A stretch of DNA of 64,000 bases, from assembly GCA_051313645.2 (NCBI GenBank), contig JBNRSN020000001.1, positions 128,774,001 to 128,838,000 on the forward strand. The letters are read 5' to 3'. Of the stretch, positions 9,332-56,921 are shown in pieces; position 1 is the stretch's first letter; every line of letters begins with the position of its first letter. The notes under the pieces are model-generated. The model ran no database searches, was not told the origin of the DNA, and saw only the letters and a list, made by a program, of their open reading frames with translations. Both the position numbers and the translations under genes were made by a program. This stretch comes from Centroscyllium fabricii (Eukaryota).

Positions 9332-9597
9332 TATTACCACAGGAGGACGATCCCATAAAATATTACCACAGGAGGACGATCCCATAAAATATTACCACAG
9401 GAGGACGATCCCATAAAATATTACCACAGGAAGACTATCCCATAAAATATTACCACAGGAAGACGATCCATTAAAATCTTACATCAAGAGGACTATCCCA
9501 TAAAGTATAACGCCAGGAGGACGATCCCATAAAGTCTTATGCCAGGAGGACGAGCCCAAAACGTATTACGACAGGAGGACGATCCCATAAAGTCTTA
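9332..9597. repeat. 29-bp minisatellite, about 9 copies
   Basis: Unit TATTACCACAGGAGGACGATCCCATAAAA. The first three copies are identical and later copies diverge. Confidence 0.95.
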
Positions 9598-9648
9598 CTC
9601 ATGAGCACTTGCATCAACACAATACTGAAAAACTACGTCCCCGATATT

Positions 9649-18855: not shown

Positions 18856-18936
18856 GAGAGCATCTAGATCCGCTTCTACTTTCGGTTTGATAGCGTATGG
18901 CCTTCATGAACACCGGCCTGCTGTCTGGCTTAACAT

Positions 18937-21900
18937 TGTGGCGGCACGCCCACTGGGACATCGAATCCGCCACGGGAACTCCGCGGAGCAAAGCCCCGCT
19001 CATCCGGGTGACGCGACGACGTCACCACGTCAGCCGACGCGATGACGTCACCAACCGCGGGACTGTTTAAATACGCTTGTTGCGAGTGGTTCACTCTCTT
19101 TCTTGTTTTGTTTAGTATATTAAAGCTGTGTTTTCTCTAGCTCTGGCTCACGTGTGGTTCCTAGGCCCTGCCGGCGCTACAGTGGTGACCCCGAATTGGA
19201 ACGACTTCCAAAGAAGAAAAGCTGCCGCAGGATCTGGGACCACCAGCCAAAGAACTTTTTAAATAAGAAAACATGGTAAACCCAAGGAACCAAGCTCCAC
19301 GAACGCAAGGACTTGGCCAGAACGCCGGACGTGGACTAACTCTACCCGAGTTCTGGGAGCAACGGCCAGCGGCCTGGTTTATGTGCATCGAGACCAGCTG
19401 CCGCACACATGGCATCCAGGGGGACGACCGCTACGACCTGGTGTTCTCAGCCCTACCACAGTCGACGATCGATCGGATGTGGTCAAAAATACAGCGTGTG
19501 CCCACCGCAGGCAGGTATGAATCACTCAAGGCCGCGCTTATAAAAAAATTTACCCCCTCTCAATTTGAGCGCGACTGCCAGCTCCTCGACCTCCCCGAAC
19601 TCGGGGACGCAGACCCATCGGACCTCTTAGGTCAGATGCAAGCGCTCACACCCAACCCGGCCTCCCTCTTCCGCACCGTCTTCCTCCTTAAACTGCCCCA
19701 CGCCATCAGACCGGCCTTGGCGGCCCTTGGCCAACGGAGCGATGACGAGCTCGGAGAGGAAGCCGACAGGCTCATGGAGGCGCAGCGCACCCGCTCAACC
19801 ACGTGCGACCCTAACTCCGCATCGGTAGAGCGCAGCCAATCACCCCCCAGGCATAACTTTACGCCTGAACCTAGGGCCCCGCGCCCACCTAGGCAACCGC
19901 GTCCCTCTAGCACCGGCTGGTGCTACTACCACACGCGGTTCGAGCACAAAGTGCACCGCTGCGTCCAGCCATGCGCGTTCAAGCCACGGCCCAACTCAGC
20001 CCCCACCATGTCTGTAGGCCACACAGGAGCACTGCTCTTTGCTACAGACAGCGGCACAGGCCTCAGGTTCCTCTGCGACACAGGCGCGCAGCACAGCATC
20101 GTGCCAGCCTCCCCTGCAGAAACCAAACAAGGCACCCGGGGCCCGCCACTAGCGGCGGCCAACGGCTCCAGTATAAAAACGTACGGCACCCGCAAGCTTA
20201 CAATTACCCTTGCAAGCCACGCGTACACCTGGGATTTCGTAACGGCCCAGGTCACATCGCCCCTCCTCGGGGCAGATTTCCTCTGCGCCTACGGCCTACT
20301 GGTCGACGTAACCCGGCGCCGCTTGGTCAACATAAATACCATGACGACCATCCCATGCTCCACAGGGCCCGCACTCCTGGCCCACGCGGCAGCCCAATGC
20401 CGCTCCCGGGACTCCGATGCCTACGGCATACTCCTTGCAGAGTTCCCCGCCCTAACCAACCCCACGTTCACCGCCCGACAGGCCAAACACGGGGTGGAGC
20501 ATTTTATAACGACCACAGGCCCTCCCGTCCATGCCCACGCCCGTAGGCTCGACCCGGCCAAGCAGGAGATAGCGCGCACCGAGTTCCGCACCATGGAGCA
20601 ACTCGGTATAATCCGCCGCTCCAACAGCCCCTGGGCCTCTCCTCTCCACATAGCCCCCAAGCCCGACGGAGGTTGGCGCCCCTGCAGCGACTACCGCCGC
20701 CTAAACAACGCCACCACCCCGGATAGGTACCCCGTACCCCACATCCAGGATTTTTCCGCCAGATTAGCGGGCTGTACGATCTTTTCCAAGATCGACCTGG
20801 TGCGTGGCTACCACCAGGTGCCGGTACACCCGGCAGACATTCCTAAAACGGCCGTTATTACCCCCTTCGGGCTCTTCGAGTTCCTTAGGATGCCCTTCGG
20901 CCTTAAAAACGCGGCCCAGGCCTTCCAGCGCCTCATGGACTCAATCCTGCGGGACTTGAAGTTCATTTTCATCTATTTAGACGACATCCTCGTGGCCAGC
21001 ACCTCCCCCCAGGAACACCTCCTGCACCTCAGGACCCTGTTCCAGCGCCTTACCGAACACGGCCTTATCTTAAGCCCCACCAAGTGCAAATTCGGCCTCG
21101 AGACTATTGACTTCCTCGGCCACCGCATTTCCCAAACAGGGGCCATACCCCTGCCCTCCAAGGTGCAGGCGATACAGGAATTCCCCCGCCCGCACTCCAT
21201 TAAAGGGCTGCAGGAATTCTTAGGCATGGTTAATTTTTATAACCGCTTTATCTCGGGAGCAGCCGCTCTCATGGCCCCCTTATACCAGGCCACCCATGGG
21301 CAGTCCAACAAGGCTGCGGTCGAGTGGACGGCCGACGCCGCCACCGCCTTCACCGCAACTAAAACCACCCTGGCAAACGCCACCCTCCTAGCCCACCCTA
21401 GGCCCAAAGCCAGAGTAGCCCTCACCACCGACGCCTCCGACCATGCGGTCGGGGCCGTATTTGAGCAGTGGACCGGCAACTCGTGGCAGCCCCTGGCCTT
21501 TTTCAGCCGGCAACTCCGGCCCCCAGAGGTTAAATACAGCGCCTTCGATAGGGAGCTACTCGCTCTCCATCTGGCAGTGCGACACTTTCGTTTCCTCTTG
21601 GAGGGCCGCCACTTCACAGCCTTCAGCGACCATAAGCCACTCACGTTTGCGATGGCTAAGGTCGCCGAACCCTGGTCGGCCAGGCAGCAGCGCCAACTCG
21701 TGGCCGTGTCGGAATTTACAACCGACATCCAGCACATTTCCGGCCGCGACAACGTGGTCGCTGACTGCCTCTCACGCCCCACCATTAACGCCGCCCAAAT
21801 GGCGGTCGATTACGCCCAGCTGGCCGCGGACCAGCTAGCCGACCCCGACCTGCTCAATGCAGCAGCTAATCTCCCCGGCCTCCACTTGGCCAATATCGCG

Positions 21901-22944
21901 CACGGCCCCGCTGCCACCGTCGTCTGCTGTGACGTATCCTTGCCGCAACCCAGGCCAGTCGTACCCCACGCTTGGAGGCGACACATATTTAGGACCCTCC
22001 ATGACCTGTCCCACCCCGGCGCCCGCGCGTCCATCAAATTAATCTCGGCCCGGTTCGTATGGCGCGGCCTGCGCAAGGATGTCTGCGCCTGGGCCAGCTC
22101 CTGCATAGCCTGCCAGCGCTCCAAAGTGCATAAGCACATCAAGGCACCGCTGGAAACGTTTAAAGTGCCGGCCAGACGCTTTGACCACGTCCATATCGAT
22201 CTCGTCGGGCCACTACCGCCATCCCGGGGCCACATGCACCTAATAACCATGGTCGACCGCAACACTCGCTGGCCAGAAGCAGTCCCCCTCACCGCCACCG
22301 GCACCACGGACTTGGCCAGGGCGTTCATCGCCACCTGGGTCGCCCGCTTCGGCGTGCCCACAGACATCACCTCCGACAGAGGACCCCAGTTTACGTCGGC
22401 ATTATGGGCGGCCATCGCCCGCGACCTTAGGGTAACACTACATCGAACCACCGCATACCACCCACAAGCGAACGGGCTATGCGAACGGTTCCACTGCTCA
22501 ATGAAGGCATCGCTACGAGCCACGCTCAAGGACGCGTCGTGGACCAACCGCCTTCCATGGGTTCTCCTCGGGCTGCGCTTGGCAGTCAAGGAAGACCTAA
22601 ACGCCTCGGCAGCAGAGCTCATCTACGGCCAAACTTTAACAGTGCCGGGCGAGTTCCTGGCTGAGCCCAACATTCCCTGGTCAGCCGACCAGTATTTAAC
22701 AGACTTCGCCAACCCGGCACGAGCTTTCCAGCCACTACCAGTGGCCCGGCATGGAGAGCCATGGGAACTCCGCGGAGCAAAGCCCCGCTCATCCGGGTGA
22801 CGCGATGACGTCACCAACCGCGGGACTGTTTAAATACGCTTGTTGCGAGTGGTTCACTCTCTTTCTTGTTTTGTTTAGTATATTAAAGCTGTGTTTTCTC
22901 TACCTCTGGCTCACGTGTGGTTCCTAGGCCCTGCCGGCGCTACA
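18937..22944 (+). mobile_element. Gypsy LTR retrotransposon B (CsRN1-like clade) nested in A
   Basis: 5' LTR 18937-19181 and PBS TGGTGACCCCGA (tRNA-Trp complement) at 19183. The 3' LTR (about 22758-22944) is truncated. 4-bp TSD ACAT; excision restores the A frame TVKLHVKPDS. Confidence 0.96.
19273..22800 (+). CDS. gag-pol: Uninterrupted Gag-Pol polyprotein (1175 aa) of element B
   Basis: Gag LPEFW...WF and CYYH...C...C knuckle, protease FLCDTGA, RT YLDDILV, RNase H TDAS/DRELLA/DHKPL, integrase HDLSH...CIAC with D-D-E. The C-terminus runs into the 3' LTR. Confidence 0.93.
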
Positions 22945-23237
22945 ACATGTAATTTAACTGTTATGCCCTTCATGCTTCCCAGCTCATCTCGAAAAATTTC
23001 GCTGTGTTTCTCCAAAATGGCCTGCAGCTCTGTGGAGTGCTTTGATACAATGTGTATTGCCTGCCAGTCCAGCTTTATCTTTTTCAGCCACGTGCGCCCC
23101 ATAATGGCAGGGTAGTTCCCTTGCGTTACGTATAGTGGAAGTTTTTCGGTTCTGCCGCCATACTGAACTATGGCATCAGTCATCCCCTTCATGGGTACCG
23201 ATTGCCCCGTAAATGTTTTGAAAACCGTATCAGAGGG

Positions 23238-24213
23238 TCACAGCTTTAGGTGCCTCAAGGATTTGTAAAAGACCTTGGCCGAAATAATTGAGGCCCGTGA
23301 CCCGGTATCAATCTGCATTCTAACTGCATGTCCCTCTAACTTGGGTGAGACCCAGTATCCATCTGAACCCTCATCTATGTTCCGTATTTTAAGGGTGTTT
23401 ACCTGCAGTTCCTCCCCTGAGGAGTCACTTGATTTGTTCTCTTGCTCCATTGTATGAACGTATTTCTTTGTCCTAGCCCCGTACTTCGATGGGGTGCCCG
23501 TGCTTTTCTTACTGCGACATGCCCGTTCTATGTGGCCCTTTTTCCCGCAGCTGCGGCATTCCAAATCCCTGCACCAACAAGAAGGTGCCAGGTGTCCCTT
23601 TTGTCCACAACGGAAGCACTGACCTTGACTGCTCGGTCCTTGGCCACTTAGCTTATTACCGTCAACCTTATATACACGACTTGTCGTCACCTGCAGCTGC
23701 TGAGCTTCCTTCGAAGCCATTTCCATGCTCACCGCAATATTTAGGGCTTGCTCCCATGTTAAATCATTCTCTGTTAACAATTTCTTCTGAGCGGCCTCGT
23801 TGTTTAAGCCGCATACTAGCCGGTCTCTCAGTGTGTCATTCAGCGATTGCCCAAAATTGCAATGCTCTGTGAGCTTCCGCAATGCTGCTGCAAACTTTGT
23901 AACCGCCTCGCCATCTCCTTGGCTGCGTCTATGAAAAGTGTAACCGTTCCGCGATGACCAAGGGTTTGGGTGCAAAATGGTTGGCCAGTGTCTCTACGAT
24001 TAATTCATATGTTTGGGTCCCCGGTTTATCTGGCTGCAGTAAATCACGCAGTAGATTATATGTTCTCGGGCCCATCACGCTCAAAAATGTGGCGGAAATT
24101 CTTTCTTCCTTGATGTCATTGGCTTTGACGAAACAGTCAAATCGCTCCGTATACCCAGACCACTGCTCTGTTCCTTCATCATAGGGCCCAATCGTTCCGT
24201 AGACTGCAGCCAT
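23238..24213 (-). pseudogene. gag: Element A gag-protease, frameshifted
   Basis: IGPYDEGTEQWSGYTERF..., LRDRLVCGL, CFRCGQKGH...CRSCGKKGH, IDTGS. Confidence 0.88.
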
Positions 24214-34992: not shown

Positions 34993-36500
34993 AATGTTAT
35001 CCTGAATATTGTGTGTATTCACAGACATCTTTGATGTCACATATGCAAACTACTCAGTATTATTATTAAAATGCTCTGAGGAAAACTGTGGAACAGGATT
35101 GACTATTAAGGTTTCCAAGGGTGAAATCTGTAGAAGCAACAGCATAAGCTGTTTCAAAAATTTGAACGACCACCAAAAATTCCCATATCTATTGGGGGAA
35201 CAGAGGGACTGTGTAAAATTAGCGCCAAACTACGTCACAGCTTGCCATAAGCAGAGGGACAACCAGTGACCACTGAAGCTAAGAAGAGCATAGGAGATTT
35301 ATATGCGGGTATATATGTATGTGTTTGCATAATTATCCATTCACTATGTCTAGTTATGCATTTGTATGTTCAATTGTATATGTCCTTTTTCTGTGCTTTT
35401 GCAACATTAGATGTATCTTGTCATGCCAATAAAGCAATTTGAATTGAATTGAATTGATAAGCCCAATCCACAGTGTTTGCAGTACACGACAAGTATTTAC
35501 CAGTGCCAGAAGGTGTCGACAAATTTTTTAAGAATTTGAAACCAGAGTTTACAGACACAAAGGATAATGACAAAGTGCAAATAGGTCTCCTTGCTCTTAC
35601 CTTCAGGGAATTCATTCTATCATGTGGGAGTGTAGGCGTTGGAGATGTTTGGCATTTTACGCAGTAAAGCATGTAAGAATTTAAAAGCTCTTTAATTGAT
35701 GTGGATGCTGCATATGGATTTAATTGATCAGGAATTCAGTCTATCATGTAGGTTAGACATGGGGACTATATTGTGATCTGCTATGCAGATTATTGTGATG
35801 AACATGGGTGCTGCATTCTAATTACTGTGTGCATTAATCACAATGATACAGTTTGATTTGGAATCCTGAGGCAAATCCATTCTTCATATTATTTAAAATG
35901 GTAACTGAAGTTATTTTGCATTCCTGTGAGATGGCAGAAGACCTTAATGCAGAGACAACAATCCATAACTATCCCTTTGTATTCACAATCTGTGGATTGG
36001 ATAGTTCTGCACCCTTCACTGGTATTATCACCATTGCTCGCACAAACATGTTTCAGATAAATATAAATGAATACAAACTGAGAGGGCTTAGGAAATTGAC
36101 AGCCACATGTCATTTTCTTTTGGCTCTATTTATTATTACAAAGATTACTGCCATCCTAATGTTTCTGATGGTTTTCAACTTTTACGTGTTGATAATATGT
36201 TTTTATTGAGTGTTTGAATCAACTTTTGATTTCCAAACCTGGGAACAAACAATGGGCGATTGGGGAGTAATTGCATTTTTATAGTAAGATGTCCACTGTG
36301 CCAGAAATAGCTGGGTGAGTGTGGAAATATAACAGAGTAAGGGGCACTTCTGCACCTCTCATATCCACATTCAAGATACAGGTACACAATCCTTTATCCG
36401 CAACTCCAAAAACCGAAAAGCTCCAAAAAGCGAAATTTCAAAATGACCTGAGTTGCGCCAAACCTGACCGGTTTTAAAAGCTAATTTGAATCATACCGGT

Positions 36501-39500
36501 TCATGTAATAAAGACTTACCAAGATTTTAGTGAACATAAAGCTAGGCTTTATTCAACTTATGATACAACATAAAGATAGTAAGCTAGTTCAGTCACTAGC
36601 CTCCAACTTCCAAAGTGTCTCAGTCCAACTGGTGCATAAATCCCAGTATTTATACTTCATGGTCAGTTGCCCTCAGCTGGCCGACTAGTAACTGTTCCTG
36701 GGTTGGTTGGAAGTCCAACCAATAACTCTTCCTAGATTTATTTAGGAAGTCGTATTATACGACATTCTTCCTCCCTAGGTTTGGGAGGCCAGTCTTGCTT
36801 TAGTGGACCAAGCGAACCAAAAACAGTCGTAGTCATTTCGCTCTCTGCTTGTGACTAGAAGGTACGTCACCCCGGACCGTGTCCTGGTCCCAGGGTCTCT
36901 TGATCCGCACTGGTGGGCCGGTAGAGTCTGTGTTATCTTGATCATCCGGTGGAGGACAGGGAATATCGTGACACCTGGGTCGCTTGGCCCGTACTGGTGG
37001 GCCGGTCGAGTCTGTGTCGTCTTGATCGTCCTGTGGAGGACGGAAAATATCATGACTGCGGGTGCGGGTCCCCACAGGTGCCGAGCTGGCGTCATCCTGA
37101 GTTGTTACCGGCAGATCCTTCGATGTCCCAGGTTGTGCGTCAATTCCGTAAGGGGATAGGATGTTATTATCGTGGGATCCCTCTTCAATTTGACCCGTGT
37201 GACCGGATGGGCAGGGAGCCAGATCCCTGAGTGAGACAGTGGGCTCCCGACCATCAGGGTACCGCACGTGTGCATATGTGGGGTTTACCTATGTTAGTTC
37301 CACCTCATCCACGAGAGGGTCATTCTTGGCCAATCGGACGAATCTCCGGAGTAGCACGGAGCCTGGGGCCACCAACCATGATGGTAGAGATGTCCCATGT
37401 GTGGAGCGACGTCGAAAGTTAAAGAATCGCTCATGAGGCATGACATTAGTAGCCGTAGAAAGGAGCGACCTAATAGAGTGTAATACGTCGGGGAGCACAG
37501 TTTCCCATTGCTGATCGGGTAAATTGCGTGGCCGCAGTGCCAGGCGGACAGCGTTCCAGATGATGGCGTTGTACTGCTCGACCTGCCCGTTGCCAATTGG
37601 GTGATATGGTGTTGTCTTACTCATGGCGATTTCTCATTGGGAGAGATAGTTTTTAAGTTCACCAGACATAAGGAGGTACCTCGATCAGAATGGATGAAAT
37701 TTGTCGTACCACAAAGAGAAAAGACGTGATTGAGGGATTTGATAACCGTAGAGGTAAGCATATTAGGGCAGGGAAAGGCAAAGAGAATGCGCAAATATTC
37801 ATCTGCCATCGTAAGGAGGTAGGTATTCCATGTAGAAGAGAGCGATGGCCCTTTAAAGTCTATGCTAAGTCACTGCATGGGCTGCATAGCGTGTATGAGT
37901 ACGCTGTCTGATGGGCGGAAGAATTGTGGTTTCAATTCCGCACAAGTCCTGCAGGAGGAGCAAGCTTTTCTGACATCTTCCGTGGAGAATGGTAGATTTT
38001 TGCATCGCACAAAGTGCAGCATGTGCGTTACGCCCAGATGGCATAAGTCCATATGGAGATCCGCCAGGGTTGATGATGACTTTGAAGAACAGAATGCCCG
38101 TGTGAAGGTATCAGGGGCCACATTCTGTTTGCCGGGTCGGTAATGGATAGTATAACCAAAGGCAGCCAACTCCATTCCCCAAAGTTGAATTTTATTATTT
38201 TTGATTTTGGTGCGTTTCCGGTTGTCCGGCATGAAGGCTACGGAACGCTGATTGGTTATGAGGGTAAAATGACGCCGAGCAAGAAAATGGCTCCATTGGC
38301 GCACAGCTTCGATGATGGCTGTGGCCTCCTTCTCGACAGGGGGATAATGGAGCTCGCTACCCTGCCAAGTTCTGGATAGAAATGCCACCGGTCGCCCACC
38401 TTGATTCAGGGTAGCCGAGATCGCTTCCTCCGATGCATCACACTTGACCACAAAGGGAAGGTTCTCATCGATGGAGCGAAGCGTGGCTTTCTCCAGCAGC
38501 CGTTTGAGGAGGTCAAAGGCTGAAAGAGCCGTTGTGTCTAATGGAAAGGACTTCGCATGAAGCAGGGGCTGTATTTTATCCGAAAAGTGAGGTATCCACT
38601 TTGCGTAGTAAGCAAACATGCCAAGTGCCCAACGAAGAGCGCCAAGATTTGTAGGAGGAGGAAGCTCCTGAAGTGGATGAAGTCGCTCTGGGTCTGGTTT
38701 AATGACCCCGTTGCCCACCCAGTAGCCAAGAATATTAACTGACGGTACCGATTTCACTGATTTAGAGTCGTTCAACGTTAAGTGGCGATGACAGAGGATG
38801 TCAAAAAAGTGCCGCAGGTTGGTGTCATGTTCCTTCTGATCATGGCCGGCAATCGTGATATTGTCCAAATACGGAAAAGTATCCGTCATGTTCTCTTGCC
38901 TGACCAAGCCATCCATGGCTTGCTGAAAGAGAGCCACTCCATTGGTGACCCCAAATGGAAGGCGACGAAACTGATAAAGCCGACCATTGGCCTCAAAGGC
39001 CGTATACTTCTTGTCGGAATCTTTCAGTGGCACCTGATGGTACGCGCTTTTTAAGTCGAAAGTTGAAAATACCTTGTACTTAGCAAGGTTGTTGACCATA
39101 TCATCTATGTGTGGGAGTGGGTAGGCATCTAGATCAGTATATTGGTTAACCGTTTGTGAATAGTCGATACATAGATGTTTCTTATGTGGCTTTAAGGAGT
39201 TCTTCACAATGACGACTTGAGCCCGCCAGGGTGACGAACATGGTTCAATGATCCCCTCAGCTAAGAGGCGAAAATTTTCTGTCCCAATAAATGCTTCATC
39301 ATCCTGGCTGAAACGTCATGATCTGGTGGCGATGGGTTTACAGCGGGGGGAGAGATTGGGAAATAAGGAGGGTTCGCTGAGCAAGGCCGCTGAAAGTGCA
39401 CAAAACGGCGCCTTAGAAATGGTAAGCTCCTGCCTCGACCCTCCAAACTCAAAAGTGAGTCTCTTGTGTTGCTTCTGAAAATCTTGCCCCAGAAGCACAT

Positions 39501-41098
39501 CGCTGCATAAATTCTCGAGTATTCCAAGCCGGGTGGAGGAATAGGTGGGGCCATGGAGGATGAGAGTGACAAGGCAGAATCCAGCAGAATTGGTAGTCAA
39601 AGTCGTCAAAGCCATCGCAATCTCTCTATCCGAAGGGTAAATGTGCAGGTTTAACCTGCTGACAGCCCACTTACTGATGAAGCTATCAGAGCTGCAGGAG
39701 TCAATGCGCTCAGAGTGTGTCCATTGATCGAAACTTTCGTGGCTGCATAGGACAGACTTTGTGGAAATGCAGCCCTGATAGGGGAAGAAGGGGCAGTTGT
39801 ATCGTTGCCAGCTGTAGTCGCCGTAGTGTTTCTTGGGGGAGAAGCAGTTCCATAGAGGGCAGCTGTGAAGCTGACAGGAGCTCTCACCCGGTATGCTCTA
39901 GGGCAGCGGCCTCTCTTGTTAGCAGAGGCTTTCGACTGGCATACTTTGGAGAAATTTCCTTTTTTGTTGCAGTAGTTGCAGGTTACATTCCGAGCCGGAC
40001 AAAATTTTCGGTAATGAAATGTACTGCCACAAAAAAACCACCATTTGTTTGATCGCCAGGATGCTGCTAGGGCGGGGTCAACATCAGGGAAGGCCTCGGG
40101 GGTAGGGTCATCATCTGTTAGAGTAGAGTCATCATCAGTGGGATCTTCCGCCCGAGACCTATCAAAGAATTCTTTCCTAGCGATAGCCACCGCCCGTGCA
40201 CGCGGTAGGAGATACGTGTCTGCATTTTTTTTTGCTCGATCCAAGGCGCATGCCTGGTCGTAGGCCGCCTGTAACTCAAGGGTTTTATTTTCCAGTAATC
40301 GCTGCCGTATAAAAGGAGCCGCAATTCCATTGATAAAGGAATCGCGGATGAGTTCCTCTTGATACTTCTCAGCTGAAATAGCCTTAAAGTTACAGTCTTT
40401 ACTAAGCCTACAAAGTTTCTGGAGGAATTCATCGAGTGATTCCTCCGGCTGCTGGCGAGTTGTGGCCAGTAGGTGTCGCGCAAAGATTTCATTCGGAGAT
40501 TTGACAAACAACTGCTGTAAAGTTTCGATAGCAGTGTCGTAATCTGTACAGTCCTCAATATAATCATACACGTGCGGTGATACGTAGTTGATAAGCATTT
40601 GTAATTTAATAGAGGCATCCACCTCATATTCTTCAAGGAAGTTGTTGAAAGTACGAAACCAATGTTTCCATACCTTTGCTGCTGCAGGTCCATTCGGTTC
40701 CAAGTCCAGGCGAGCAGGCCTCAGGAGTTTTTCCATGATGGATTAAGTTCCTTGCCAAATTCCTTCCTAAGGTTGAGTTGCAACTGGTTGTTCTGAATCA
40801 CCCCAGCGTGGAGACGATATTAAGTTGAATAAATTGATGTAATAAAGACTTACCAAGCTTTTAGTGAACATAAAGCAAGGCTTTATTCAACTTCTAATAC
40901 AACATAAAGATAGTAAGCTAGTTCAGTCACTAGCCTCCAACTTCCAGAGTGTCTCAGTCAAACTGCTGCATAAATCCCAGTATTTATACTTTCTGGTCAG
41001 GTGCCCTCAGCTGGCCAACCAGTAACTATTCCTGGGTTGGTTGGAAGTCCAACCAATAACTCTTCCTAGATTTATTTAGGAAGTCGTATTTTACGACA
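36501..41098 (-). mobile_element. Full-length Gypsy LTR retrotransposon C, degenerate ORFs, no tRNA PBS
   Basis: 264-bp LTRs at 40835-41098 and 36501-36764, TSD CCGGT, PPT at 36765-36775. Gag MEKLLRPARLDL (39651-40736), RT YLDN, RNase H CDAS (37870-39207), integrase HSDRG/GNGQVE. Confidence 0.95.
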
Positions 41099-41435
41099 CC
41101 GGTGTAGTAAGTATTACATTCCTATTCCATTCCTTGCACTGCTCGATAGGAAATGTAATAACTGTGGGGTGAGCCCTCCCTCAGCTGAGCCCGGCATTTC
41201 CCTCTAGTGCCAGGCTTGTTCTCCGGCTCCTGCTCCCCCGGCGGGGTGAGCCCTCCCTCAGCTGAGCCCAGCACTTCCCTCGAGTGCCGGGCTCGTTCTC
41301 CGCCTCCCGGTCCCTCGGCGGCCCCGCGGGGCTCTGGCCGCAGCCGCGCTAGTCCGCGGGCCGCCGCTGCGGCCTCCCTCGCACAGCGCTGCACCCGAGC
41401 CCCAGTATCAATGGCCCACAATCTCCTTTTTTAAA

Positions 41436-43893: not shown

Positions 43894-46800
43894 TGATCCA
43901 ATCTCTCTTCTGGTTGTGGTTGATTAGCTCCTGATGATGAGAAACCTGTTGAGGTGAGAGTTGAGCAGGCTTTGCTAATCTCCACAGGATCAGCAGCCAG
44001 TTTTTCCCAGTTCTATCGGAGCATGTCTAGATAAGCAAGATATTTTTGCAAACAAGAATTTTATTGTATTCAGTGTAATCAAAACTTCATCTGGGCTGTT
44101 GTAAACTTATCAGGAGTTATTTAGAAAATGGAATATATATCATGATTTGCTCTCTGGGTGAGAACAAAACATTTACTGTAGTTAGGTGGTGTCAACAAAA
44201 CTGAAAATTAAATTATCTTAATACAAGATCAACTCTTATAGAATGATATGATGCATGTGCACATTCAGGATACGATATGAGCTTAAAATAAAGCATATTA
44301 CAATTTGACACAAATATGTTAACCAGTCTATTATAATTAGTATACTGACCCCCAAACAGTAATGTGGAGGTCGGGGATGGCATTAAACGGGAAATTATAG
44401 AAGCGTGCAATAAGGACACAGCAGTTATCATGAGTGACTTTAATCTACATATAGATTTGGATAACCAAATCACTAACAATGCTGTGGAGGAGGAATTCCT
44501 AGAGTGTATACGGGATGGTTTCCTGGACCAATATGTCGAGGAACCAACTGGAGATCAGGCCATCTTTGACTGGGTATTATGCAATGAGAAAGGATTAATT
44601 AGCAATGTTGTTGTGTGAGGCCCCTTGGGGAGGCGTGATCATAATATGATCGAATTCTTCATTAAGATGGAGAGTGAAGGAGTTGACTCAGACTAGGGTC
44701 CTGAATTTAAATAAACGAAACTACGATGGTATGAGGCACGAGTTGGCTAGGATTGATTGGGGGACATTACTTAAAGGGTTGATGGTGGATAGGCAATGGC
44801 AAACATTTAAAGATCGCATGGATGAACTACAGAATGTGTTCACCCCTGTTTGGCATAACAATAAAACAAAAAGGGTGACTCAACCGTGGCCAACAAGGAA
44901 AATTAGGGATAGCATAAAATCCAAGGAGAGGACATATAAATTGGCCAGAAAAAGCAGCAAACCTGAGGATTGGAAGCAGTTTAGGATTCAGCAAAGGAGG
45001 ACAAAGGGATTAATTAACAGGGGTAAGCTTGCAAGAAACATAAAAACTGACTGTAAAAGCTTCTATAGATATATGAAAAGAAATAGATTTGTGAAGTCAA
45101 GCATAGGTCCCTTGATGTCAGAATCAGGGGAATTTATAATGGGGTACAAAGAAATGGCAGACCAATTAAATGTATATTTTGGTTCTGTTTTCACAAAGGA
45201 GGACACAAACAACCTTCCTGGAACGGTAAAGACAGGGAACATAGGGACTAATGAGAGGGAGGAATTGAATGAAATCAGTGTTTGTAAGGAAATGGTGTTA
45301 GGGAAATTGATGGCATTGAAGGCCGATAAATCCCCAGGGCCTGATAATCTACATCCTAGGGTACATAAGTAACTGGCCCTAGAAATAGTAGATGCATTGC
45401 TGGTCATCTTCCAAAATTCTATAGACTCTGGAATAGTTCCCGTGGATTGGAGGGTAGCTAATGTTACCCCACTACTTAAAAAAGGTGGTAGAGAGAAAAC
45501 GGGGAATTATAGACTGGTAAGCCTGACATCGGTAGTGGGGAAAATGCTAGAGTCCATTATAAAAGATGTAATAGCAGAGCACTTGGAAAACAGTGACAGA
45601 ATCGCACAAAGTTAACATGGATTTACAGAAGGTAATCTACTGGAATTATTTGAGGATGTAACTGGTGGAATAGATAAGGGAGAATCAGTTGATGTGATGT
45701 ATTTGGACTTTCAGAAGGCTTTCGATAAAGTCCCGCATAAGAGATTGGCGTGCAAATTTAAAGCACATGGGATTGGAGGTAAGGTACTGACTTGGATAGA
45801 TAACTGGTTGGCAGACAGGAAGCAAAGAGTTGGAATAAATGGATCTTTTTCCAAGTGGCAGGCAGTGACTAGTGGGGTACTGCAAGGATCAGTGCGAGGA
45901 CCTCAGCTATTCACAATATATATTAATGATCTAGACAAGGGAACTAGATGTCATATCTCCAAGTTTGCAGACGACACAAAGCTGGGTGGGTGTGTGTGCT
46001 GTGAGGAGGATGCAGAGAAACTGTAGTATGATTTGGACAGGTTGGGTGATTGGGCAGATGCATGGCAGATGCAGTATAATGTGGATAAATGCGAGGTTAT
46101 CCACTTTGGTGGCAAAAACAGGAAGGTAGATTATTATCTGAACGGCAATAGATTGGGAAAAGTGGAAGTGCAATGAGACCTGGGTGTCCTTGTGCACCAG
46201 TCGCTGAAGGTAGGCATGCAGGAGCAGCAGGCGGTTAGGAAGCAAATGCTATGTTGGCCTTTGTAGCAAGAGGATTTGCGTACAGGAGCAAGGATATCTT
46301 GCTGTATTTGTACACGGCCTTAGTGAGACTACTCCTTGAGTATTGTGTGCAGTTTTGGTCACCTTATCTGAGGAAGAATATTCTTGCCATGGAGGGAGTG
46401 CTGCAAAGATTTACGAAACTGATACCTGGGATGGCAGGAATGACGTATGAGGAGAGACTGGGACGATTAGGCTTACATTCACTAGAGTTTAGAAGAATGA
46501 GAGTGTAATGATTAGATGTGGTTACACGTTCTGTCCACTAGGTGGAGAGTTCCACTAGGTGGAGAGTTCAGAGTTCAGAGTACAGAGTTGGGTACAAGGC
46601 AAACTGAAACTAAGCAGACATGTTGGATTCTGTGAGACTGCTGCAAGCTGCTGAACTTGCTATGAAAATAAAGTGATTACTTGTATATTAAATCAAGCCT
46701 CATTCTTCAGAACACGAACATAACATGGTACCAGGAGTAAAATCTAAGTGAGTAAACATAACAAATGAGCGACGACATCATGGATTTTAAACCACCTGAC

Positions 46801-47199
46801 GTATCGTCAATAATCTAATAAAACTAAAGACGTGTAGTTACCTTAACTAAAGGCTTTTATTAGCTTTACAAAGGAGCTACGCTCCGATCGAACATCAGGT
46901 ACAGAATGAATGGGGGCAGGTCAGACCCCACCTATAAGGCACTCACCTGAGGGGAGGAGTTAGAGGTGTGGCTGACCTGACCCCGCGACAGTGTCGCAAT
47001 ACAAAGCTGTGTATAGTGCACCCAGCCGCTATACATGCTGGTTAATATTGTGCCACAATATTACGGTGGAAATAAGCACATACAACGGTTACCACTTTCA
47101 CCCCTTCTTTGAAAATTAAGTCCGGCGGGGTGAATGGACAGAGCAGTTCATAATGAGTCTCTCCGGCGGTCGCGTCTGCCTTGAGGACCGTCGGGTCTC

Positions 47200-47470
47200 T
47201 GTCAGCGGCGCTGGTGCCTGCAGTGTCGGCGGCGCTGGTGCCGTTAATGTCGGCGGTGCTGGTGCCGGTAGTGTCGGCGGCGCTGGTGCCGGTAGTGTTG
47301 GTGCTGGTGCCGGTAGTGGCGGTGGGGCCGGGCTCTCCGGTTGCTGGTGTGCCTGCGGTGCATCGTCCTGTTCTTGGTCCTCAGCTGGCAGTGGCGGGGG
47401 CTCCGGTGTGTATGTGTGTATCGGCCAAAATCCCGGGGGCTCTGGTGTGTGTGTGTGTATCGGCCAAAGT
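47200..47470. repeat. 24-bp and 45-bp proline-rich coding repeats at the D integrase C-terminus
   Basis: (PAPAPPTL)n and (HTxTPEPPGxWPI)n in ORF 47116-48690. Confidence 0.85.
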
Positions 47471-50090
47471 CCGGTGGGTTGTGGTTGATATGTAGGCCAG
47501 TGGTCGATAGGTAGTGGCTGGTCGGGCTGAGGCTCGGCCAGGGGCTCTGCTGTGGTGCTCCCGGCGGGCGCTAGGTACCTGATGGAGACGGTGTCCTCGC
47601 GCCCGTCCAGGAACTGCAGGTATGCGTACTGCGGGTTGGCGTTCAGCAGCTGCACCTTCTCCACCAGGGTGTCGGTCTTATGGCCGCGGACATGCTTTCT
47701 AAGTAAGACCGGCCCCGGCATCGTGAGCCATGGTGGAAGCGCTGTCTCCGAAGTCGACTTCCTGGGGAAGGAAAAGAGCAGTTCGTGAGGTGTGGCGTTG
47801 GTAGCCGTACACAGCAGAGAGCGGATCGAGTGCAGCGCGTCTGGGAGGACTGCCTGCCAACGGGACACTGGAAGGCCTCTGGACTTTAGGGCCAGGCTGA
47901 CCGCCTTCCAGATGATCCCATTCTCCCTTTCTACCTGGCCGTTCCCCCGGGGGTTGTAACTGGTCGTTCTGCTGGAGGCAACCCCTTTCTGAAGCAGAAA
48001 CTGACGCAGTTCGTCGCTCATGAACAACGACCCCCGGTCGCTGTGGATGTAGCTGGGGAGACCGAAAATGGCGAACAGCATGGTGAAGTGTTTGATCACC
48101 GTTGCGCTCATTATATCTGGGCAGGGGAAGGCGAAGGGGAAGCGGGAGAACTCGTCTACGACCGTGAGGAAGTATGAGTTGCAGTCGGTGGAGGGGAGGG
48201 GGCCTTTGAAGTCCACGCTTAGATGTTCAAAGGGGCAGGTGGCCTTAATGAGGTGCGCCGTGTCTGGCCTGTAAAATTGGGGTTTGCACTCGGCGCAAAC
48301 AGGGCACTCTCGGGTCATAGCCTTGATCTCCGTGATGGAGTAGGGGAGGCTACGAGATTTAACGAAATGGGCATGTCTGGTGATACCCGGGTGGCAGAGG
48401 CGATCGTGGAGTTCCTTCAGCCGGTCTAGCTGGGCACTGGCGCACGTTCCCCTGGACAGTGCGTCCGGGGGTTCATTGAGTTTGCCTGGTCGGTAAAGAA
48501 TGTCGTACTCGTAAGTCGAGAGCTCGATCCGCCACCGCAGGATCTTATCATTCTTGATTATACCCTTTTGTTTATTGTTAAACATAAGCGCGACCGACCA
48601 TTGGTCGGTGAGCAGGGTAAAACGCTTACCGGCCAGGTAATGACGCCAGTAGCGCACGGCCTCCACGATGGCCTGGGCCTCCTTTTCCACTGCAGAGTGG
48701 CGAGTTTTGGGTCCCTGTAGGGTGCGGGAGAAAAACGCTACGGGCGAACGCCATGTGGGCTTCTACCGAGAGGGGGAAGATGGCAGCCTTGAGGAGCGGT
48801 CTGGCCTTATCCGCGAACTGGGGAACCCATTGCGCGTAATAAGAGAAAAATCCCAGACATCTCTTCAGGGCTTTGGGGTTGTGAGGAAGGGGCAGTTCCT
48901 GTAAGGGGCGCATACGCTGTGGGTCGGGGCCGAGGACCCCGTTTTCCACCACGTATCCGAGGATGGCGAGCCGATCTGTACTAAAGACGCGCTTATCTTT
49001 ATTGTACGTGAGATCGAGCCATTTCGCCGTGTGGAGAAATTTGGCCAGGTTGGCATCGTGGTCCTGCTGGTCATGGCCGCAGATGGTCACGTTGTCCAGG
49101 TAGGGGAAAGTGGCCTGCAACCCGTTCTGGTCAACCATGCGGTCCATCTCCCTCTGGAATACCGACACTCCGTTGGTCACGCCGAAGGGGACCCGGAGGA
49201 AGTGGTAGAGCCGACCGTTCGCCTCGAAGGCGGTGTACGGGCGATCAGCTTTCCGGATCGGGAGCTGGTGATACGCTGACTTAAGGTCGATTGTGGAGAA
49301 CACCTTGTACTGGGTGATCTGGTTAACCATATCGGAGATGCGGGGGAGGGGGTAGGCGTCGAGCCCGGTGTAGCGGTTAATGGTCTGGCTGTAGTCGATC
49401 ACCATCCGCGGTTTCTCGCCAGCCTTAACCACTACGACCTGGGCCCGCCAGGGGCTGGTACTGGCTTCAATTATCCCCTCCTTCAGCATACGCCCGACCT
49501 CCGACCTGATAAATGTCCGATCCTCTGCACTGTAACGCCAACTCTTATTAGCTATGGGCTTGCAGTTTGGGTCGAGGTTGGCGAACAGTGAGGGGGGGTC
49601 GACTTTCAGGGTGGAGAGGCCGCAGGTTGGGCTCCGCTTTAGGAAGGGATTGTCCCAGCTACTGATGGTGAGGGGGGCCAGGGTCCCGCCGAACTCCATT
49701 GTCACGCTCTTAAGGTCTCACTGGAAATCCACTCCCAGTAAGACTGGGGCGCACAACTGCTTGAGTATGTACAATTTAAAATTACGGTACACGCAGTCCC
49801 TAACTGTGAGCGTGATGGAGCAGTAGCCGGTGACGTCTGCTGTGTGGGACTGTGAAGCAAGGGAGACTTGGTAGCGCGTGGGCAGGATCTGCAGTCCGTA
49901 GCACTGCGCTGTATCGGGGTGGATGAAGCTCTCTGTGCTTCCGGTGTCGAACAGGCAGTTAGTGGCATGGCCGTTGACTTTAATCCCCATCATGGAATTT
50001 GATAGGGTGTGCGGCCTAGCCTGGTCGACCGTGGCTGAGGCCGAAGTGTGTGTGTTTGTGTGGGAGCCCTCCGCTGGCCAGGGCCGTGCA

Positions 50091-50400
50091 CAAGATGGCG
50101 GCGCCCGTGATTCGCACATGGTCGGCCGCTGTGGACAAAATGGCGGCGCCGGGGAGGCGCTCATGGCTGGCCGCTGAAGACAAGATGGCGGCGGCGGGGG
50201 GTCGCACATGGCTGGCCGCTGCGGACAAGATGGCGGCACCCGTGATTCGCACGTGGCAGGCCGCTGTGGATGCGGTGGTGGTGCCCGTGGTTCATATGCA
50301 GCGGGCCACGGTGGCTGGGTTGGCGGTGCCCGTGATTCGCACGCAGCGGGCCACGCTGGGCGAGATGCCGGCGTTGGGGGGTCGCACATGGCCGGCCGTG
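50091..50400. repeat. 45-bp coding minisatellite (about 7 copies) between gag and protease of D
   Basis: Unit approximately CAAGATGGCGGCGCCCGTGATTCGCACATGGTCGGCCGCTGTGGA, encoding PPSCPQRPAMCESRA-like 15-aa repeats on the minus strand. Confidence 0.88.
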
Positions 50401-52813
50401 GCTGAGTTTGGCGTGTCGTGTGCGCGGCTGGCCTCTGCCGCATCAGGTTGGGAGACGGGGGCGCTTGTACCCTACCCCCGGACCGTCGCTGGGTCGCGCT
50501 GCAGCTGCAGCCAAGGGCCGGTGTTGGAGCTTTCGCAGGCCGCGCTGTTGTGTCTGGAGTTGGACGCCGGGGCCGATTTGTAGGCCCTGGCGTAGTGTCC
50601 CTTTTTCGAGCACTTCTCGCAGGTCACGGTCCTCGCGGGGCATTTCGCTCTTGGGTGTAGTCCCTGGCCGCAGAAATAACATTTTTTCTCCGCCGGCGTC
50701 TTCGCAGCTGCCGCTGCCATTGTGGGGGTCTCGACCCGTTGCGGGGCCACCCAGGAGTCGAAGGTAGCGTGTGGGTTTTGGCCGCTGTACGCCCGTAGTC
50801 TGTGGCGCGCGCCATCCACAGCGTTGGAGAGGGAGATCGCCTCTTCCAGCGTTAGTGTCTCTTTCTCCAGCAGCCGCTGGCGGGCCTGGGCGGACCTGAC
50901 CCCCGTTACATAGGCGTCCCGGACAAGGAGATTCGCCTCCTCTTGTGCCGTCCATGGTTTGCAGTCACAGGCCCGGACAAGGGCTTGGAGCGCCAACAGG
51001 TACTGTTCATTAGACTCACCCACTAGTTGTGGTCTGGTCGCTAGCACATGTTTGGCGTAGACTGAGTGGACCGGGTGCACGTAGCATGCCTTCAGTTTTT
51101 CCACGGCTTCTGTGTACGTCTTAGCGTTGCGGATGAAGGAGTATACCCGGCTGGAGATCCTTGAAGTGAGAACATGCAGCTTGTTCCCGTCGGTTGTCAC
51201 CTTGGCGGCCTCCATGTAGGCCTCGACGAGACTGAACCAGTGTTCAAAGGTATTGGCGGTGGATGGGTCCTGTGGACTAATGTCCAGCTTTTCGGGTTTC
51301 ACAGCGCCGCTCTCGATTTTAAATTTTAAAGCTAATAAAATTGACGTATCGTCAATAATCTAATAAAAACTAAAGACGCGTAGTTACTTTAACTAAAGAC
51401 TTTTATTAGCTTTACAAAGGAGCTACGCTCCGATCGAACATCAGGTACAGAATGAATGGGGGCAGGTCAGACCCCACCTATAAGGCACTCACCTGAGGGG
51501 AGGCGTTAGAGGTGTGGCTGACCTGACCCCGCGACAGTGTCGCAATACAAAGCTGTGTATAGTGCACCCAGCCGCTATACATGCTGGTTAATATTGTGCC
51601 ACAATATTACGGTGGTAATAAGCATATACAACGGTTACCACACCACCGGAGAGTTTGAAACTAACGGGGAATGTTGACGGAAATTGGCACACCTTCAAAC
51701 AGCAGTTCTGCCTCTACGTTGCGGACATGGGACTGGAAACGGAGCTTGATGCTAGGAAGGTAGCGTTATTGCTAACAATAGCAGGGCCACAGGCCCTGGA
51801 AGTATTTAATACTTTCGTGTTTGCCAATCAAAATGATAATGAAAAACTGGATGTAGTGCTTGATAAATTTGATGCTCACTGCTCTCAAAAGAAGAACGAT
51901 ACGTATTTCGATCTCGGATGCAGGAACAGCTCGAGCCCTTTGATAGCTTTCTGATGGACTTGAGGCATAAAAGCACAGTCATGCAACTTTGCAACACTAA
52001 AAGACTCCATGATCAGGGACCAGATCGTTTTTGGTGTGGAGGATAAAAAGATCAGAGGGAAACGGAGCTGACACTGGAAGCAGCCATCAGGATCTGCAAG
52101 GCAAGTGAACTGTCTCACAAGCAAGTGAAAACGTTCTGCGAAATGGCGGCAGGCACAACGGCGCGTGTGAGTGACAGTGCGGCAGCGGTTGGTGCGGTGT
52201 CATACCAGGGGAGGAGGCGCCCACAGACCCGGCCTGCCCAGCGAGCAGATGACGGGATGTTCAACTGCATGCGCTGTGCCTCACAGCACAAGCCAAAACA
52301 GTGCCCAGCCTTTGGTAAGCAATGCTCAAATTGCCAGGGTAAAAACCATTTTGCTAGACAATGCTTCTCAAAAAGAAAAGAGGGGAAGAAAGGAAGATAT
52401 GTAAACATAGTGGAGGAAACTGATCTCAGTGACACGGTTTTCATTGGCATGGTGAACTGTGAAAATGAGTCAGAAAGTGAGCAACAAATAGAAAATAATG
52501 CCACTAAAGAAGATAAATGGATAGCACCATTGCAAATAAATGGGACTCTAGTCACAATGAGATTAGACACTGGTGCAGAAGCAAATCTCAGAAGCATGTC
52601 TGATATCAAGGAAATGAAAGATAAGCCACAAATAAAGAGGAAAATGTCAGGACTGAAAGACTACAATGGACAGCCTATTCAGTGTTTAGGCACATGCAGA
52701 CTGAACATCACAGTGAAAGAAAAAGTGCATCATCTACTCTTCTCTGTCGTGGCTGAAGGACGCTAATCACTGCTGGGTGATAAATCATGTGAAGATTTAG
52801 GGCTGGTGAAAGA

Positions 52814-55524
52814 GTGTATCGCATCAACACAGCCGTGAGTACATCAAGTGACTCCATTGACTCTATAGTACAAAACTTTGAAGACGTTTTCAAGGGGTTT
52901 GGTGTACTGCCATTCACATATAAAATCCAGCTGAAAGAAGACGCACAGACAGTGGTGCATGCTCCATGCAGAGTCCCAGCACCACTGAGAGACCGCTTAA
53001 AGAAAGAGCTTGATAGGATGACCACGCTGGGTGTGATACAGAAGGTAGAGGAGCCTACAGATTGGGTGAACTCGATGGTGGCCACAAAGAAAAAGAATGG
53101 CGTGTTGAGAATATGTATGGACCCAAAAGATCTGAATGAGAACATAAAGCGTGAACACTATCAAATACCCACACGTGAAGAAATCACCAGCGAAATGGCG
53201 AGCGCCGGTTACTTCACAAAGCTCGACGCATCACAAGGCTTCTGGCAACTAAAATTGGACGAAAGCAGCACCAAATACTGCACCTTTAACATGCCCTTCG
53301 GCAGATATTGCTTTCTCAGACTGCCTTTTGGAATAAAATCAGCACCTGAAATATTTCATAGAGCAATGGAACAGACCACCGAGGGGTTGGGTGGCGTTCG
53401 GGTCTACATTGATGACATCATCATCTGGGGCTGTACAGTCCAAGAACACAATCAGAGGCTGAACAAAGTGATGGAGCGCATACGAAAATATGGACTGAAA
53501 CTCAACAAGAGCAAATGCCAGTTTGGAGTTCAAGAACTCATCTTTCTGGGAGACAGGCTCTCTGCACAAGGTGTCCAGCCGGACAAAGAAAAAATACATG
53601 CCATACAGAACATGCCCAGGCCCACGGACAAGACAGGTGTGCTACGCATCATTGGGATGGTCAACTTCATAGGTAAATTCATTCCCAATTTGACTGCGAA
53701 AACATCATGCATCCGTGAACTCCTGCACAATGAGACTGAGTTCAAATGGACAGACAAACTTGAAAATGAGTGGAAAAAGCTCAAAAACACACTGACCACC
53801 GCGCCAGTGTTGACATTTTATGACCACACGAAAAGGATCAAAGTGTCGACAGACGCCTCCAAGGACGGAATTGGTGCAGTTCTCTTACAGGCTGAGGGCG
53901 AGCACTGGAAACCTGTAGCCTATGCATCCAGGGCCATGACTGAAGCTGAGCGTCATTACGCTCAGATCGAAAAAGAATGCCTAGGACTGGCATATGGCCT
54001 AGAGAGATTCCACAGCTATATATATGGCTTACCCTCTTTTACGGTAGAGACAGATCATCGTCCACTAGTCGCCATCATCAAAAAGAATCTAAACGAAATG
54101 TCCCCACGGATTCAACGTCTAATGATGAGAATGCAGCGATACGACTTTGAATTGATCTGCACACCAGGAAAACACCTGATACTCGCCGATGCACTCTCAA
54201 GAGCAACTACTGGAAACTGTGTGAGTGTAACTGATGAGGATGTTCAAAGTCATGTGAACTTGGTGTCTGCTACGCTGCCTGTGTCAGACACTAAGTCCAG
54301 ACAAATAGCTGAAGCAACAGCAAAAGACACAGAGCTACAACGTGTCATTCAAAACATGGATGAAGGATGGCCGGTGGGTTCCTGTCCACTGTTCTACCAT
54401 ATCAGAAGTGAACTCAGTGTAGTCGATGGAATGTTACTGAAGAAAAGCAGGATTGTCATTCCACGAGAGTTAAGAGAGGAAATACTGCACAGGATCCATG
54501 AAGGACATCTCAGTGTCGAAAAGTGTAAAAGGAGGGCGAGAGACACAGTATTCTGGCCTGGAATTAACAAAGACATTGAGACACTGATAAGCAAATGTGA
54601 CACATGCCAGAAACACAGAAACAAGCAAAGCAAAGAACCTATGGTGGTAGCTGATGTGCCAATAGCACCATGGCAAAAAGTAGGAATGGACTTGTTTCAT
54701 CAGACTATTTAGTGATCATTGACTATTACTCAAACTTCCTTGAGATGGCATTGCTATCAAACACAACATCAGCCTGTGTCATAACGCACACAAAATCCAT
54801 CTTTGCCAGGCATGGCATTCCAAACACAGTGGTGAGTGACAACGGCCCATGTTTCAACAGTGCAGACTGGCAGAGGTTTGCAGAGCAGTATGACTTCATG
54901 CATGTCACGTCAAGCCCTCTGTATGCACAGTCCAATGGGAAAGCTGAAAAGGGAGTTCACATTCTCAAGCAACTCCTAAAGAAAGCAGCTGACGGTGACT
55001 CAGATCCATACCTTGCTCTACTCAGCTACAGAGCATCACCTCTCGAGTGCGGGCTATCACCGGCTGAGCTGCTGATGCATCGAAAGCTGCGTACTACACT
55101 GCCGAGTCACTCAAAACCAAAGAAATGTCCAAAGCTAGACTACAAGCTAAAACAACAGAAAATGAAACAGAAGTCATTCTACGACAGGACAGCCAAGCAC
55201 CTTCCATCACTGTCAAGCAGTGACACAGTCAGGATAGAGGATGCTGATGGATGGAGGACAAGAGCCACTGTTCTTCAAGAAGTAGCTCCACGGTCGTTCA
55301 CTGTGAGGACCAAGGAAGGACAAATCCTCAGACGCAATTGCCGCAGTTTGTTAAAGACTCCACCAGAGACTGTTCGAGAGGTCAGTGAAACACACAGTGA
55401 GTCTCAGTCCATCGCTCCAACCCCTACAGACTGTAACACCAATACAAACACTCCAAGTGAACCTGTGGTAAGGAAATCCACAAGAGAAATCAGGAAACCC
55501 GAAAGACTGATTGCTAATTGTTGA
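52814..55524 (+). pseudogene. pol: Element E pol (RT-RNase H-integrase), frameshifted near 54700
   Basis: ORFs 52814-54712 and 54670-55524. Confidence 0.9.
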
Positions 55525-56921
55525 TTATTGTAAACAAAGTGTGTAATTTGTTGATGTTTCTTACAGGTTAATTCATGCCACATATATGGAGAATTGGTGT
55601 ATGTTGCAAGATAACGTTTCAATGAGAAATGGTTCAGATAACTGACACCTGTGATTTGTTAGTTTACCTGTATTGCATTTTGCCTCAAAGAAAGGGGGAT
55701 GTAATGATTAGATGTGGTTACACGTTCTGTCCACTAGGTGGAGAGTTCCACTAGGTGGAGAGTTCAGAGTTCAGAGTACAGAGTTGGGTACAAGGGAAAC
55801 TGAAACTAAGCAGACATGTTGGATTCTGTGAGACTGCTGAAATCTGCAAGCTGCTGAACTTGCTATGAAAATAAAGTGATTACTTGTTTATTAAATCAAG
55901 CCTCATTCTTCAGAACACGAACATAACAGAGAGGGGATCTCATTGAAACTTATAAAATTCTAACAGGACTGGACAGACTAGATGCAGGAAGAATGTTCCC
56001 AATGGTGGGGGAGTGCAGAATCAGGGGTCACAGTCTAAGGATAAGGGGTAAGCTATTTAGGACAGAGATGAGGAGGAATTTCTTCACCCAAAGAGTGGTG
56101 AACCTGTGGAATCCTCTACCACAGAAGACAGTTGAGGCCAATTCATTAAATATATTCAAGAAGGAGTTAAATATATTCAAGAAGGAGTTAAATATATGTG
56201 GAGTCATAGGTTCATAGAGTTATACAGCACAGAAAGAGGCCCTTCGGCCCATCGTATCCGCGCCGTCCATCAAGACCTGTCTATTCGAATCCCATTTTCC
56301 TGCATTTGGTCTGTAGCCTTGTATGCTGTGGCATTTCAAGTGCTCATCTAAATGCTTCTTGAATGTTGTGAGGGTTCGTGCCTCTACCACCCTTTCAGGC
56401 AGTGAATTCCAGATTTCAACCACCCTCTGAGTGGAAAGGTTCTTCCTCAAATCCCCTCTAAACCTCCTGCCCCTTACCTTGAAACTATGCCCCCTTGTTA
56501 TTGACCCCTCTACTAAGGGAAAAAGTTCCTTTCTATCGACCCTATCTATGCCCTTCATAATTTTGTATCAGGTCCCCCCTCAGTCTTCTCTGCTCCAAGG
56601 AAAACAACCCCAGTCTGTCCAGTCTTTCTTCATAGCTGAAGCACTCTAGCCCAGGTAACATCCTGGTGAATCTCCTCTGCACCCTCTCCAAAGCAATCAC
56701 ATCCTTCCTATAGTGTGGCGACCAGAACTGCACACAGTACTCCAAGTGTGGCCTCACCAGCGTTTTGTACAGCTCCATCATAACCTCGGCTAATGAAGGC
56801 AAGTATCCCATATGCCTTTTTAACCACCTTATTCACCTGTCCTGCTGCCTTCAGGGATCTATGTACATGCACACCAAGGTCCCTCTGATCCTCTGTCTTT
56901 CCTAGGGTCTTACCATTCATT

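Follow-up and report, generated by a model that had tools for sequence, protein, structure and literature searches.

The window analysed here, a stretch of 64,000 nt from Centroscyllium fabricii, carries on its minus strand an LTR retrotransposon that we refer to as element C. Two 264-nt LTRs that are 94.3% identical (5' LTR, TG...CA, 40835-41098; 3' LTR, 36501-36764), are flanked by the two copies of a 5-bp target-site duplication (TSD), ACCGG (left copy 41099-41103, right copy 36496-36500). Between the LTRs lie, all on the minus strand, a gag frame (39651-40736), a frame with remains of the protease that is broken off from gag (39316-39897), a frame comprising the RT, the RNase H and the start of the integrase (37870-39315), interrupted remains of the integrase located by tblastn with the integrase of a second element, D (37205-37869, bounds approximate), and a polypurine tract (PPT, 36765-36777). 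The domain order (LTR-gag-PR-RT-RH-IN-PPT-LTR), the TG..CA ends and the TSD define a Ty3/Gypsy LTR retrotransposon, the best solved relative of its RT is that of Ty3 (E 1e-45), and its broken frames mark it as a decayed copy. A YLDN motif replaces YxDD in the RT of C and in that at 48626-49717; among 120 homologs listed, 57 carried YLDN alone and 23 YLDD alone, with both states scattered over the tree.

Past the 5' LTR end (...ACATCA) and a one-base spacer (A, 40834), the minus strand of C reads TTTATTCAACTTA (40821-40833). This primer-binding site (PBS) has no TGG and is complementary to the LTR itself, pairing with 13 nt of the 3' LTR (36548-36560) and with 12 nt of the 5' LTR (40882-40893), the 13th base being mismatched solely in the 5' LTR of this copy. 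The 5' LTR segment, a predicted self-primer, contains AATAAA and ends in AAA before GCC; at the first base past it begins a predicted hairpin (GCC...GGT, 40852-40881) that would stack on the primer duplex. A TATA-like motif lies 94 nt upstream of the segment (40981-40989) and has the highest TATA score among the 22 families of the clade described below; from its position, a transcription start is predicted roughly 64 nt 5' of the segment. These positions and pairing lengths agree with those of the initial annotation, made from the sequence alone, which had drawn attention to the self-complementary site. About 2.5e-4 such matches would be expected by chance given the LTR composition and three allowed spacer lengths, and none of 100 dinucleotide shuffles equalled the pairing (longest shuffled match 9 nt). 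From LTR end to gag, the leader of C measures 98 nt, longer than in most families of the clade; in most of these, gag starts only 17-46 nt past the LTR end and the PBS nearly abuts the start codon (e.g. L066, L106, L302).

Element D, also on the minus strand, has the same layout as C with a 14-nt pairing of different sequence (5' LTR 51342-51642, TSD GGTGG; predicted self-primer segment 51401-51414; PBS, the complement of that segment, 51327-51340; 3' LTR 46797-47096). The two elements had been described as related in protein with LTRs that do not align by eye, and this holds: their identity is 31% in Gag and 59% in RT-RH, and a blastn comparison of the C and D LTRs gave no significant match (best E 0.11). 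D lies within a further Gypsy element, E (46504-55928), about 70 nt past the latter's 5' LTR; E is on the plus strand and has a TGG-type PBS, and the two run in opposite directions.

In the 7.2-Gb genome, the Gag of C and that of D each had at least 150 close matches. We retrieved 90 copies of family C, of which 79 covered the LTR-PBS junction. None of the 79 had a TGG at a distance of up to 7 nt from the LTR end, a PBS type whose occurrence in copies of C would have contradicted the initial annotation. A perfect duplex of 12-18 nt was found at the expected distance in 56 copies and one of 8-11 nt in 11 more, while 12 had none there. The segment and the PBS together showed the lowest variability across copies (0.016, versus 0.028-0.072 in other regions). 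No mutation hotspot was seen at the proposed cut, at the PBS end or at the predicted start, and the variable sites near TATA+29 in C are CpG-linked. We considered whether the base after the PBS (48 A, 21 T, 9 G) is a mark of non-templated addition and rejected this, as that base tracks the subfamily tree, with 7 changes versus 26.9 when shuffled, like other diagnostic sites.

The junction was covered in 29 of 30 copies of family D, and in all 29 a one-base indel in the LTR segment was mirrored in the PBS, with the short form in 10 and the long form in 19; a single inherited event is the probable origin. Two runs of a search of the same genome with divergent Gag proteins returned further family C copies and a third family, F (25 loci), with a 15-nt duplex, one copy of which (L298) carries a compensated substitution between segment and PBS. 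At locus L303, a family F LTR has a D-type LTR end directly inside its paired segment. The 3' LTR of an otherwise normal D copy is interrupted just past the hairpin by a truncated LINE whose 5' junction carries an A-run (L320:7200-7950). A poly(A)-site search for polyadenylated retrocopies gave no match for C and one for D, and the latter was discarded because it is this LINE insertion.

As controls we examined other Gypsy elements. TGG sites, with a self-complement of no more than 8 nt, are present in two from the window, which we tentatively take to be CsRN1-like and Mag-like, and in three outgroup loci; three further outgroup loci had unclear boundaries. A PBS that starts with TGG and matches a tRNA 3' end is the mark of the tRNA-primed Mag and CsRN1 clades; the TGG is found in the controls and in none of the 79 C copies. 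Among 16 chromodomain-bearing stretches of the same genome, 7 had a usable LTR-PBS junction and fell into three families (L252/260/263/267, L253/264, L259). In all seven, a TATA precedes an 11-nt self-primer with a purine start by about 30 nt, or by 36 nt in one copy that has a short duplication. The PBS of each is followed by a non-complementary C, which has no template in the LTR and is possibly a copied cap. Their leader-U5 helix measures 6-8 bp (p 0.03, 0.03, 0.07 and 0.35), their primer segment lies 169-460 nt from the LTR end, and in the L252 family the poly(A) signal is about 340 nt downstream of the primer. They share with C the one-base spacer past CA, PBS differences between their families are compensated, and their RTs are 31-33% identical to that of C. 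This layout matches that of Tf1 as described in earlier reports (PMC7175516, PMC4600332, PMC10085805, PMC5341516).

Named Gag and RT relatives came from Xenia, Nematostella, Hydra, shrimps and other crustaceans, an aphid, a spider, tunicates and a catshark; none were found among viral contigs. Metagenome and metagenome-assembled genome (MAG) contigs contributed 111 loci, with a Gag start in 37 and at least 130 nt upstream of it in 33. At 24 of these 33 loci we found a perfect complement of 12-18 nt that none of 100 shuffles reached, with a one-base spacer past CA in 23 of the 24; of the others, 1 was marginal and 8 had no complement (single mismatches, deletions or a missing LTR). The 3' end of the segment faces the LTR end, the orientation required of a primer. 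Among the contigs, 33 (L139-L171) are filed under bacterial genome records and contain animal-type Gypsy elements, probably through host contamination.

To align the duplexes, we anchored loci by motifs only, one at the junction and one at the LTR end, which succeeded for 31 of 38 inputs; the anchor motifs were picked after the data had been seen and fix positions 1-3. Positions 4-13 are Watson-Crick in 305 of 310 cells. The loci were then grouped by hand into 22 families, each represented by its best-pairing member. With the caveat that the families are related and the cells not independent, positions 4-13 pair in 217 of 220 cells, versus 122.7±7.0 when PBSs were permuted (maximum 155 over 20,000 permutations). 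Over positions 1-13, 282 of 286 pairs are Watson-Crick and none is G-U; position 12 is paired in 22 families and position 13 in 20, with four pair types each, and pairing then drops to 15, 12, 13, 8 and 4 of 22 families at positions 14-18. The segment lies about 23-65 nt from the PBS and LTR end across the clade, and predicted folds form the duplex with a mean pair probability of 0.74-0.99. The covariation that the initial annotation had anticipated is thus present as compensatory change, and these alignments confirm a pairing that is conserved and clade-wide in one non-chromoviral Gypsy clade. One basal member (L068) has a 15-nt pairing with a two-base spacer and another junction without RCC.

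The segments are AT-rich (230 of 286 bases), which would suit a fortuitous pairing of AT-rich sequence, and half-tRNA primers are described for some copia lineages (PMC6317226), which leaves room for a primer made of an unrecognised tRNA fragment. Both possibilities are set against a PBS that tracks each family's own LTR, and chance also against the 24 of 33 metagenome loci that beat every shuffle and the permutation maximum of 155 for 217 observed; we regard them as almost certainly wrong.

The segment ends in AAA in the clade families (AGA in one, matched by TCT in the PBS), and RCC follows directly in 18 of 22. An AGGY lies downstream of the junction in 13 of 22 families (shuffled mean 2.9, maximum 9), forming with RCCT a hairpin that spans up to about 40 nt and stacks on the duplex in predicted folds; its 48 pairs include 6 G-U, versus none in the adjoining duplex positions 1-13. 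A canonical poly(A) hexamer occurs in the segment of 13 of 22 families and CATAAA in one, and 8 have neither. The common feature of the clade, read from these alignments, is the AAA^RCC junction and not AATAAA: complementarity to AATAAA, taken as the defining feature by the initial annotation, did not hold across families, and the junction and hairpin had escaped it. No Rfam match near a cut-off was obtained. A hairpin upstream of the segment that could stop primer copying is present in C (z -3.5) and is not general (mean z -0.54). We also considered an HDV-like ribozyme fold and set it aside; a U5 that can be as short as 23 nt speaks against a fold of that size.

The overlap with the poly(A) signal raises the question of whether the duplex mainly masks this signal in the 5' LTR against early termination while another RNA primes. 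The hexamer is indeed within the duplex in 13-14 of 22 families, and only the 5' LTR has the masking strand downstream of it. However, 8 families pair a hexamer-free segment, 5 of them with a hexamer or variant further downstream in U5, so that AATAAA is not required and masking is not the main function; moreover, masking would need neither the fixed one-base offset from CA nor the exclusion of G-U pairs, and it leaves no primer site. We therefore consider this reading very improbable, and hiding of the 5' poly(A) signal is likely a side benefit in about 60% of families. The initial annotation had offered priming or termination as the role of the pairing: priming is the best reading, and termination becomes secondary.

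A strict Watson-Crick duplex, a fixed offset from the LTR end, a segment whose 3' end points toward U5 and the lack of a tRNA site are together what self-priming predicts, and this is very probably the function of the pairing when its three variants (an excised internal primer, a 5'-terminal primer, or a primer from the RNA 3' end or a second RNA) are counted together. A primer made by splicing is unnecessary, as the PBS matches contiguous LTR sequence.

Where the primer lies in the RNA can be judged by comparison with Tf1, whose first 11 bases pair with the PBS and are cut by RNase H between bases 11 and 12 (PMC7175516, PMC4600332). If the clade worked in the same way, a promoter mostly devoid of TATA would start transcription at the segment or within it, the capped 5' end would be the primer, and a short R would account for the poly(A) overlap. 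One family, L086, fits this fully: its TATA lies at about -30, its start is a purine, and a C follows its PBS. The short LTR of L073 carries GATAAG some 31 nt upstream, and here too a C comes after the PBS. An initiator-like YAGTY with its A at position 11, from which an 11-nt primer like that of Tf1 would result, is found in 5 of 22 families. L086 and the YAGTY motif count against an internal primer, and the sharp length of the duplex suits cleavage measured from an RNA 5' end.

Other signs point away from a 5'-terminal primer. Positions 12 and 13, which are paired in nearly all families with four pair types, must belong to the RNA. A TATA-like motif precedes the segment by 62-94 nt in C, D and L130, and in the latter two an initiator-like motif follows it about 30 nt later. 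A TATA at the Tf1 distance was found in 1 of 22 families and one only farther upstream in 6, which equals the expectation of random placement, and the count is weak because 15 families have no recognisable TATA. The 5' boundary of the segment is mostly a pyrimidine, and no fixed pyrimidine-purine start was seen (at most 9 of 22 families). A C follows the PBS in 5 of 22 families (absent in 17) versus a background of 18/119, the control for this feature being three related chromovirus families. Stems like those of the Tf1 pretzel are absent, the leader-U5 helix being significant in 0 of 22 families and the upstream helix in 2 of 22. As the clade mostly lacks the start features of chromoviruses and Tf1, an internal primer is weakly favoured on these sequence grounds, and we judge Tf1-type self-priming possible and on balance unlikely. 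The initial annotation had likewise placed the likely start upstream of the paired segment, unlike the 5'-terminal pairing of Tf1; the sequence signs lean this way, the start site itself being a prediction. Contigs from four sequencing runs, placed on C and D, displayed neither an RNA start nor an RNA end.

We thus somewhat favour a model in which the clade would prime reverse transcription with an LTR segment excised inside the 5' R and not with the capped RNA start. The segment and the PBS would form the 12-18 bp duplex, often stacked on the short RCCT..AGGY hairpin that is predicted to begin at the next base. By analogy with Tf1, in which RNase H cleavage yields a self-primer whose sequence is afterwards copied into the end of the cDNA (PMC7175516, PMC11042837), the element's RNase H may cut AAA^RCC and leave a 3'-OH one base from the LTR end. 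The RT would then copy U5, with the 15-25 nt from the cut to the poly(A) site presumably serving the first strand transfer. Plus-strand synthesis would copy the RNA primer, so that the PBS would be rewritten in each cycle and would stay strictly Watson-Crick. More speculatively, the 13-nt core may reflect an RNase H that trails the polymerase by 11-13 nt and releases the primer; the distance from RNase H cut to polymerase site is given as 11-12 nt for Ty3 and 11-13 nt for CaMV (PMC11363490).

The primer might also come from the segment copy at the RNA 3' end, or on the second packaged RNA, after cutting or trimming of the 3' end to AAA. Such an origin would account for the location of the segment at the poly(A) region, and it agrees with the presence of the segment in both LTRs and with the canonical hexamer found in 13 families out of 22; for strand transfer, 40-90 nt of homology would be available in the upstream part of R. 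Against it, the 5' copy lies only 23-65 nt from the PBS, which it is predicted to occupy (pair probability 0.74-0.99), and the hairpin of up to about 40 nt probably runs past the poly(A) site, so that it would be whole only at the 5' end. We consider a 3' or trans primer improbable.

To place the clade, we built a quick, unrooted RT-RH tree of 52 rows, with 10 short sources dropped, no named references and a long-branch warning; in it, a branch with SH-aLRT 100 separates the 30 clade rows from the chromoviruses and the other Gypsy elements of the window, and four chromodomain-bearing elements form their own group. No chromodomain (PF00385) was found in the scanned frames of C and D or among the domains listed for 120 + 120 homolog rows. 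Like Tf1/Tf2 of Schizosaccharomyces pombe, Tj1 and Tf1/sushi elements, the clade has the Ty3/Gypsy order, no tRNA site and a PBS directly past the 5' LTR that is complementary to an LTR segment priming into U5. Unlike Tf1/sushi elements, its RT is separate and it has no chromodomain; its duplex measures 12-18 nt with a 13-nt core where the Tf1 primer has 11 nt, a local RCCT..AGGY hairpin is predicted in place of the three-duplex Tf1 pretzel (PMC10085805), its primer is probably not 5'-terminal, and its segment lies 23-65 nt from the LTR end versus 169-460 nt in the chromoviruses of the same genome. By these sequence features, the clade would work like Tf1 self-priming and is not a member of Tf1/sushi.

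In the literature covered, self-priming is described only for Tf1/sushi, Tcn1 and plant TAR copia elements (PMC6317226): it is shown for Tf1 and regarded as a hallmark of the Tf1/sushi chromoviruses, and for TAR (Ty1/copia) and Tcn1 it was predicted from an LTR-complementary PBS. As in TAR, self-priming would here have arisen outside chromoviruses; TAR, unlike the clade, is a copia lineage of plants, and Tcn1 is chromoviral. PBS-less elements with hairpins have been described (PMC5445492, PMC6934838), and Cigr-1 (Ciona; molluscs, annelids) is listed as a distinct Ty3/Gypsy clade (PMC6238403, PMC8556966), the term "PBS" being absent from the main text of these two mollusc and annelid surveys; tunicates are also represented among the relatives named above. 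We found no description of the clade layout in literature that included few subscription papers and few Repbase and GyDB entries.

We tentatively propose, as a scenario that taken whole falls somewhat short of probable, that priming without a tRNA arose a second time, separately from Tf1/sushi, in a Gypsy lineage that is old and spread across animals: an internal primer would be excised at the conserved AAA^RCC helix junction beside the poly(A) signal with no need for a 5'-terminal one, the PBS would be rewritten from that primer each cycle, the duplex length would be set by the polymerase-RNase H distance, and the same duplex would silence the 5' poly(A) signal in most families. A second large self-priming lineage in animals (cnidarians, crustaceans, insects, spiders, tunicates, shark) would mean that the phenomenon is neither rare nor bound to one clade, and it bears on the proposal that tRNA priming came late in LTR evolution (PMC3601003). 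An internal primer, if true, would be an exception to the rule by which the RNA 5' end serves as self-primer. The clade would also offer a defined short RNA substrate for RNase H cutting of an RNA-RNA junction. Its elements would be expected to escape tRNA-fragment silencing at the PBS, and annotation tools requiring a tRNA site would probably miss them.

Elsewhere in the window, Gypsy element A (about 19000-22975, plus strand, 1177-aa open frame, TGG-type PBS) is flanked by minus-strand frames at 16247-18903 and 23238-23993 and is probably nested in another element, B, for which no LTR pair was found in the window. A tandem array with a period of 29 nt is located at 9276-9627.
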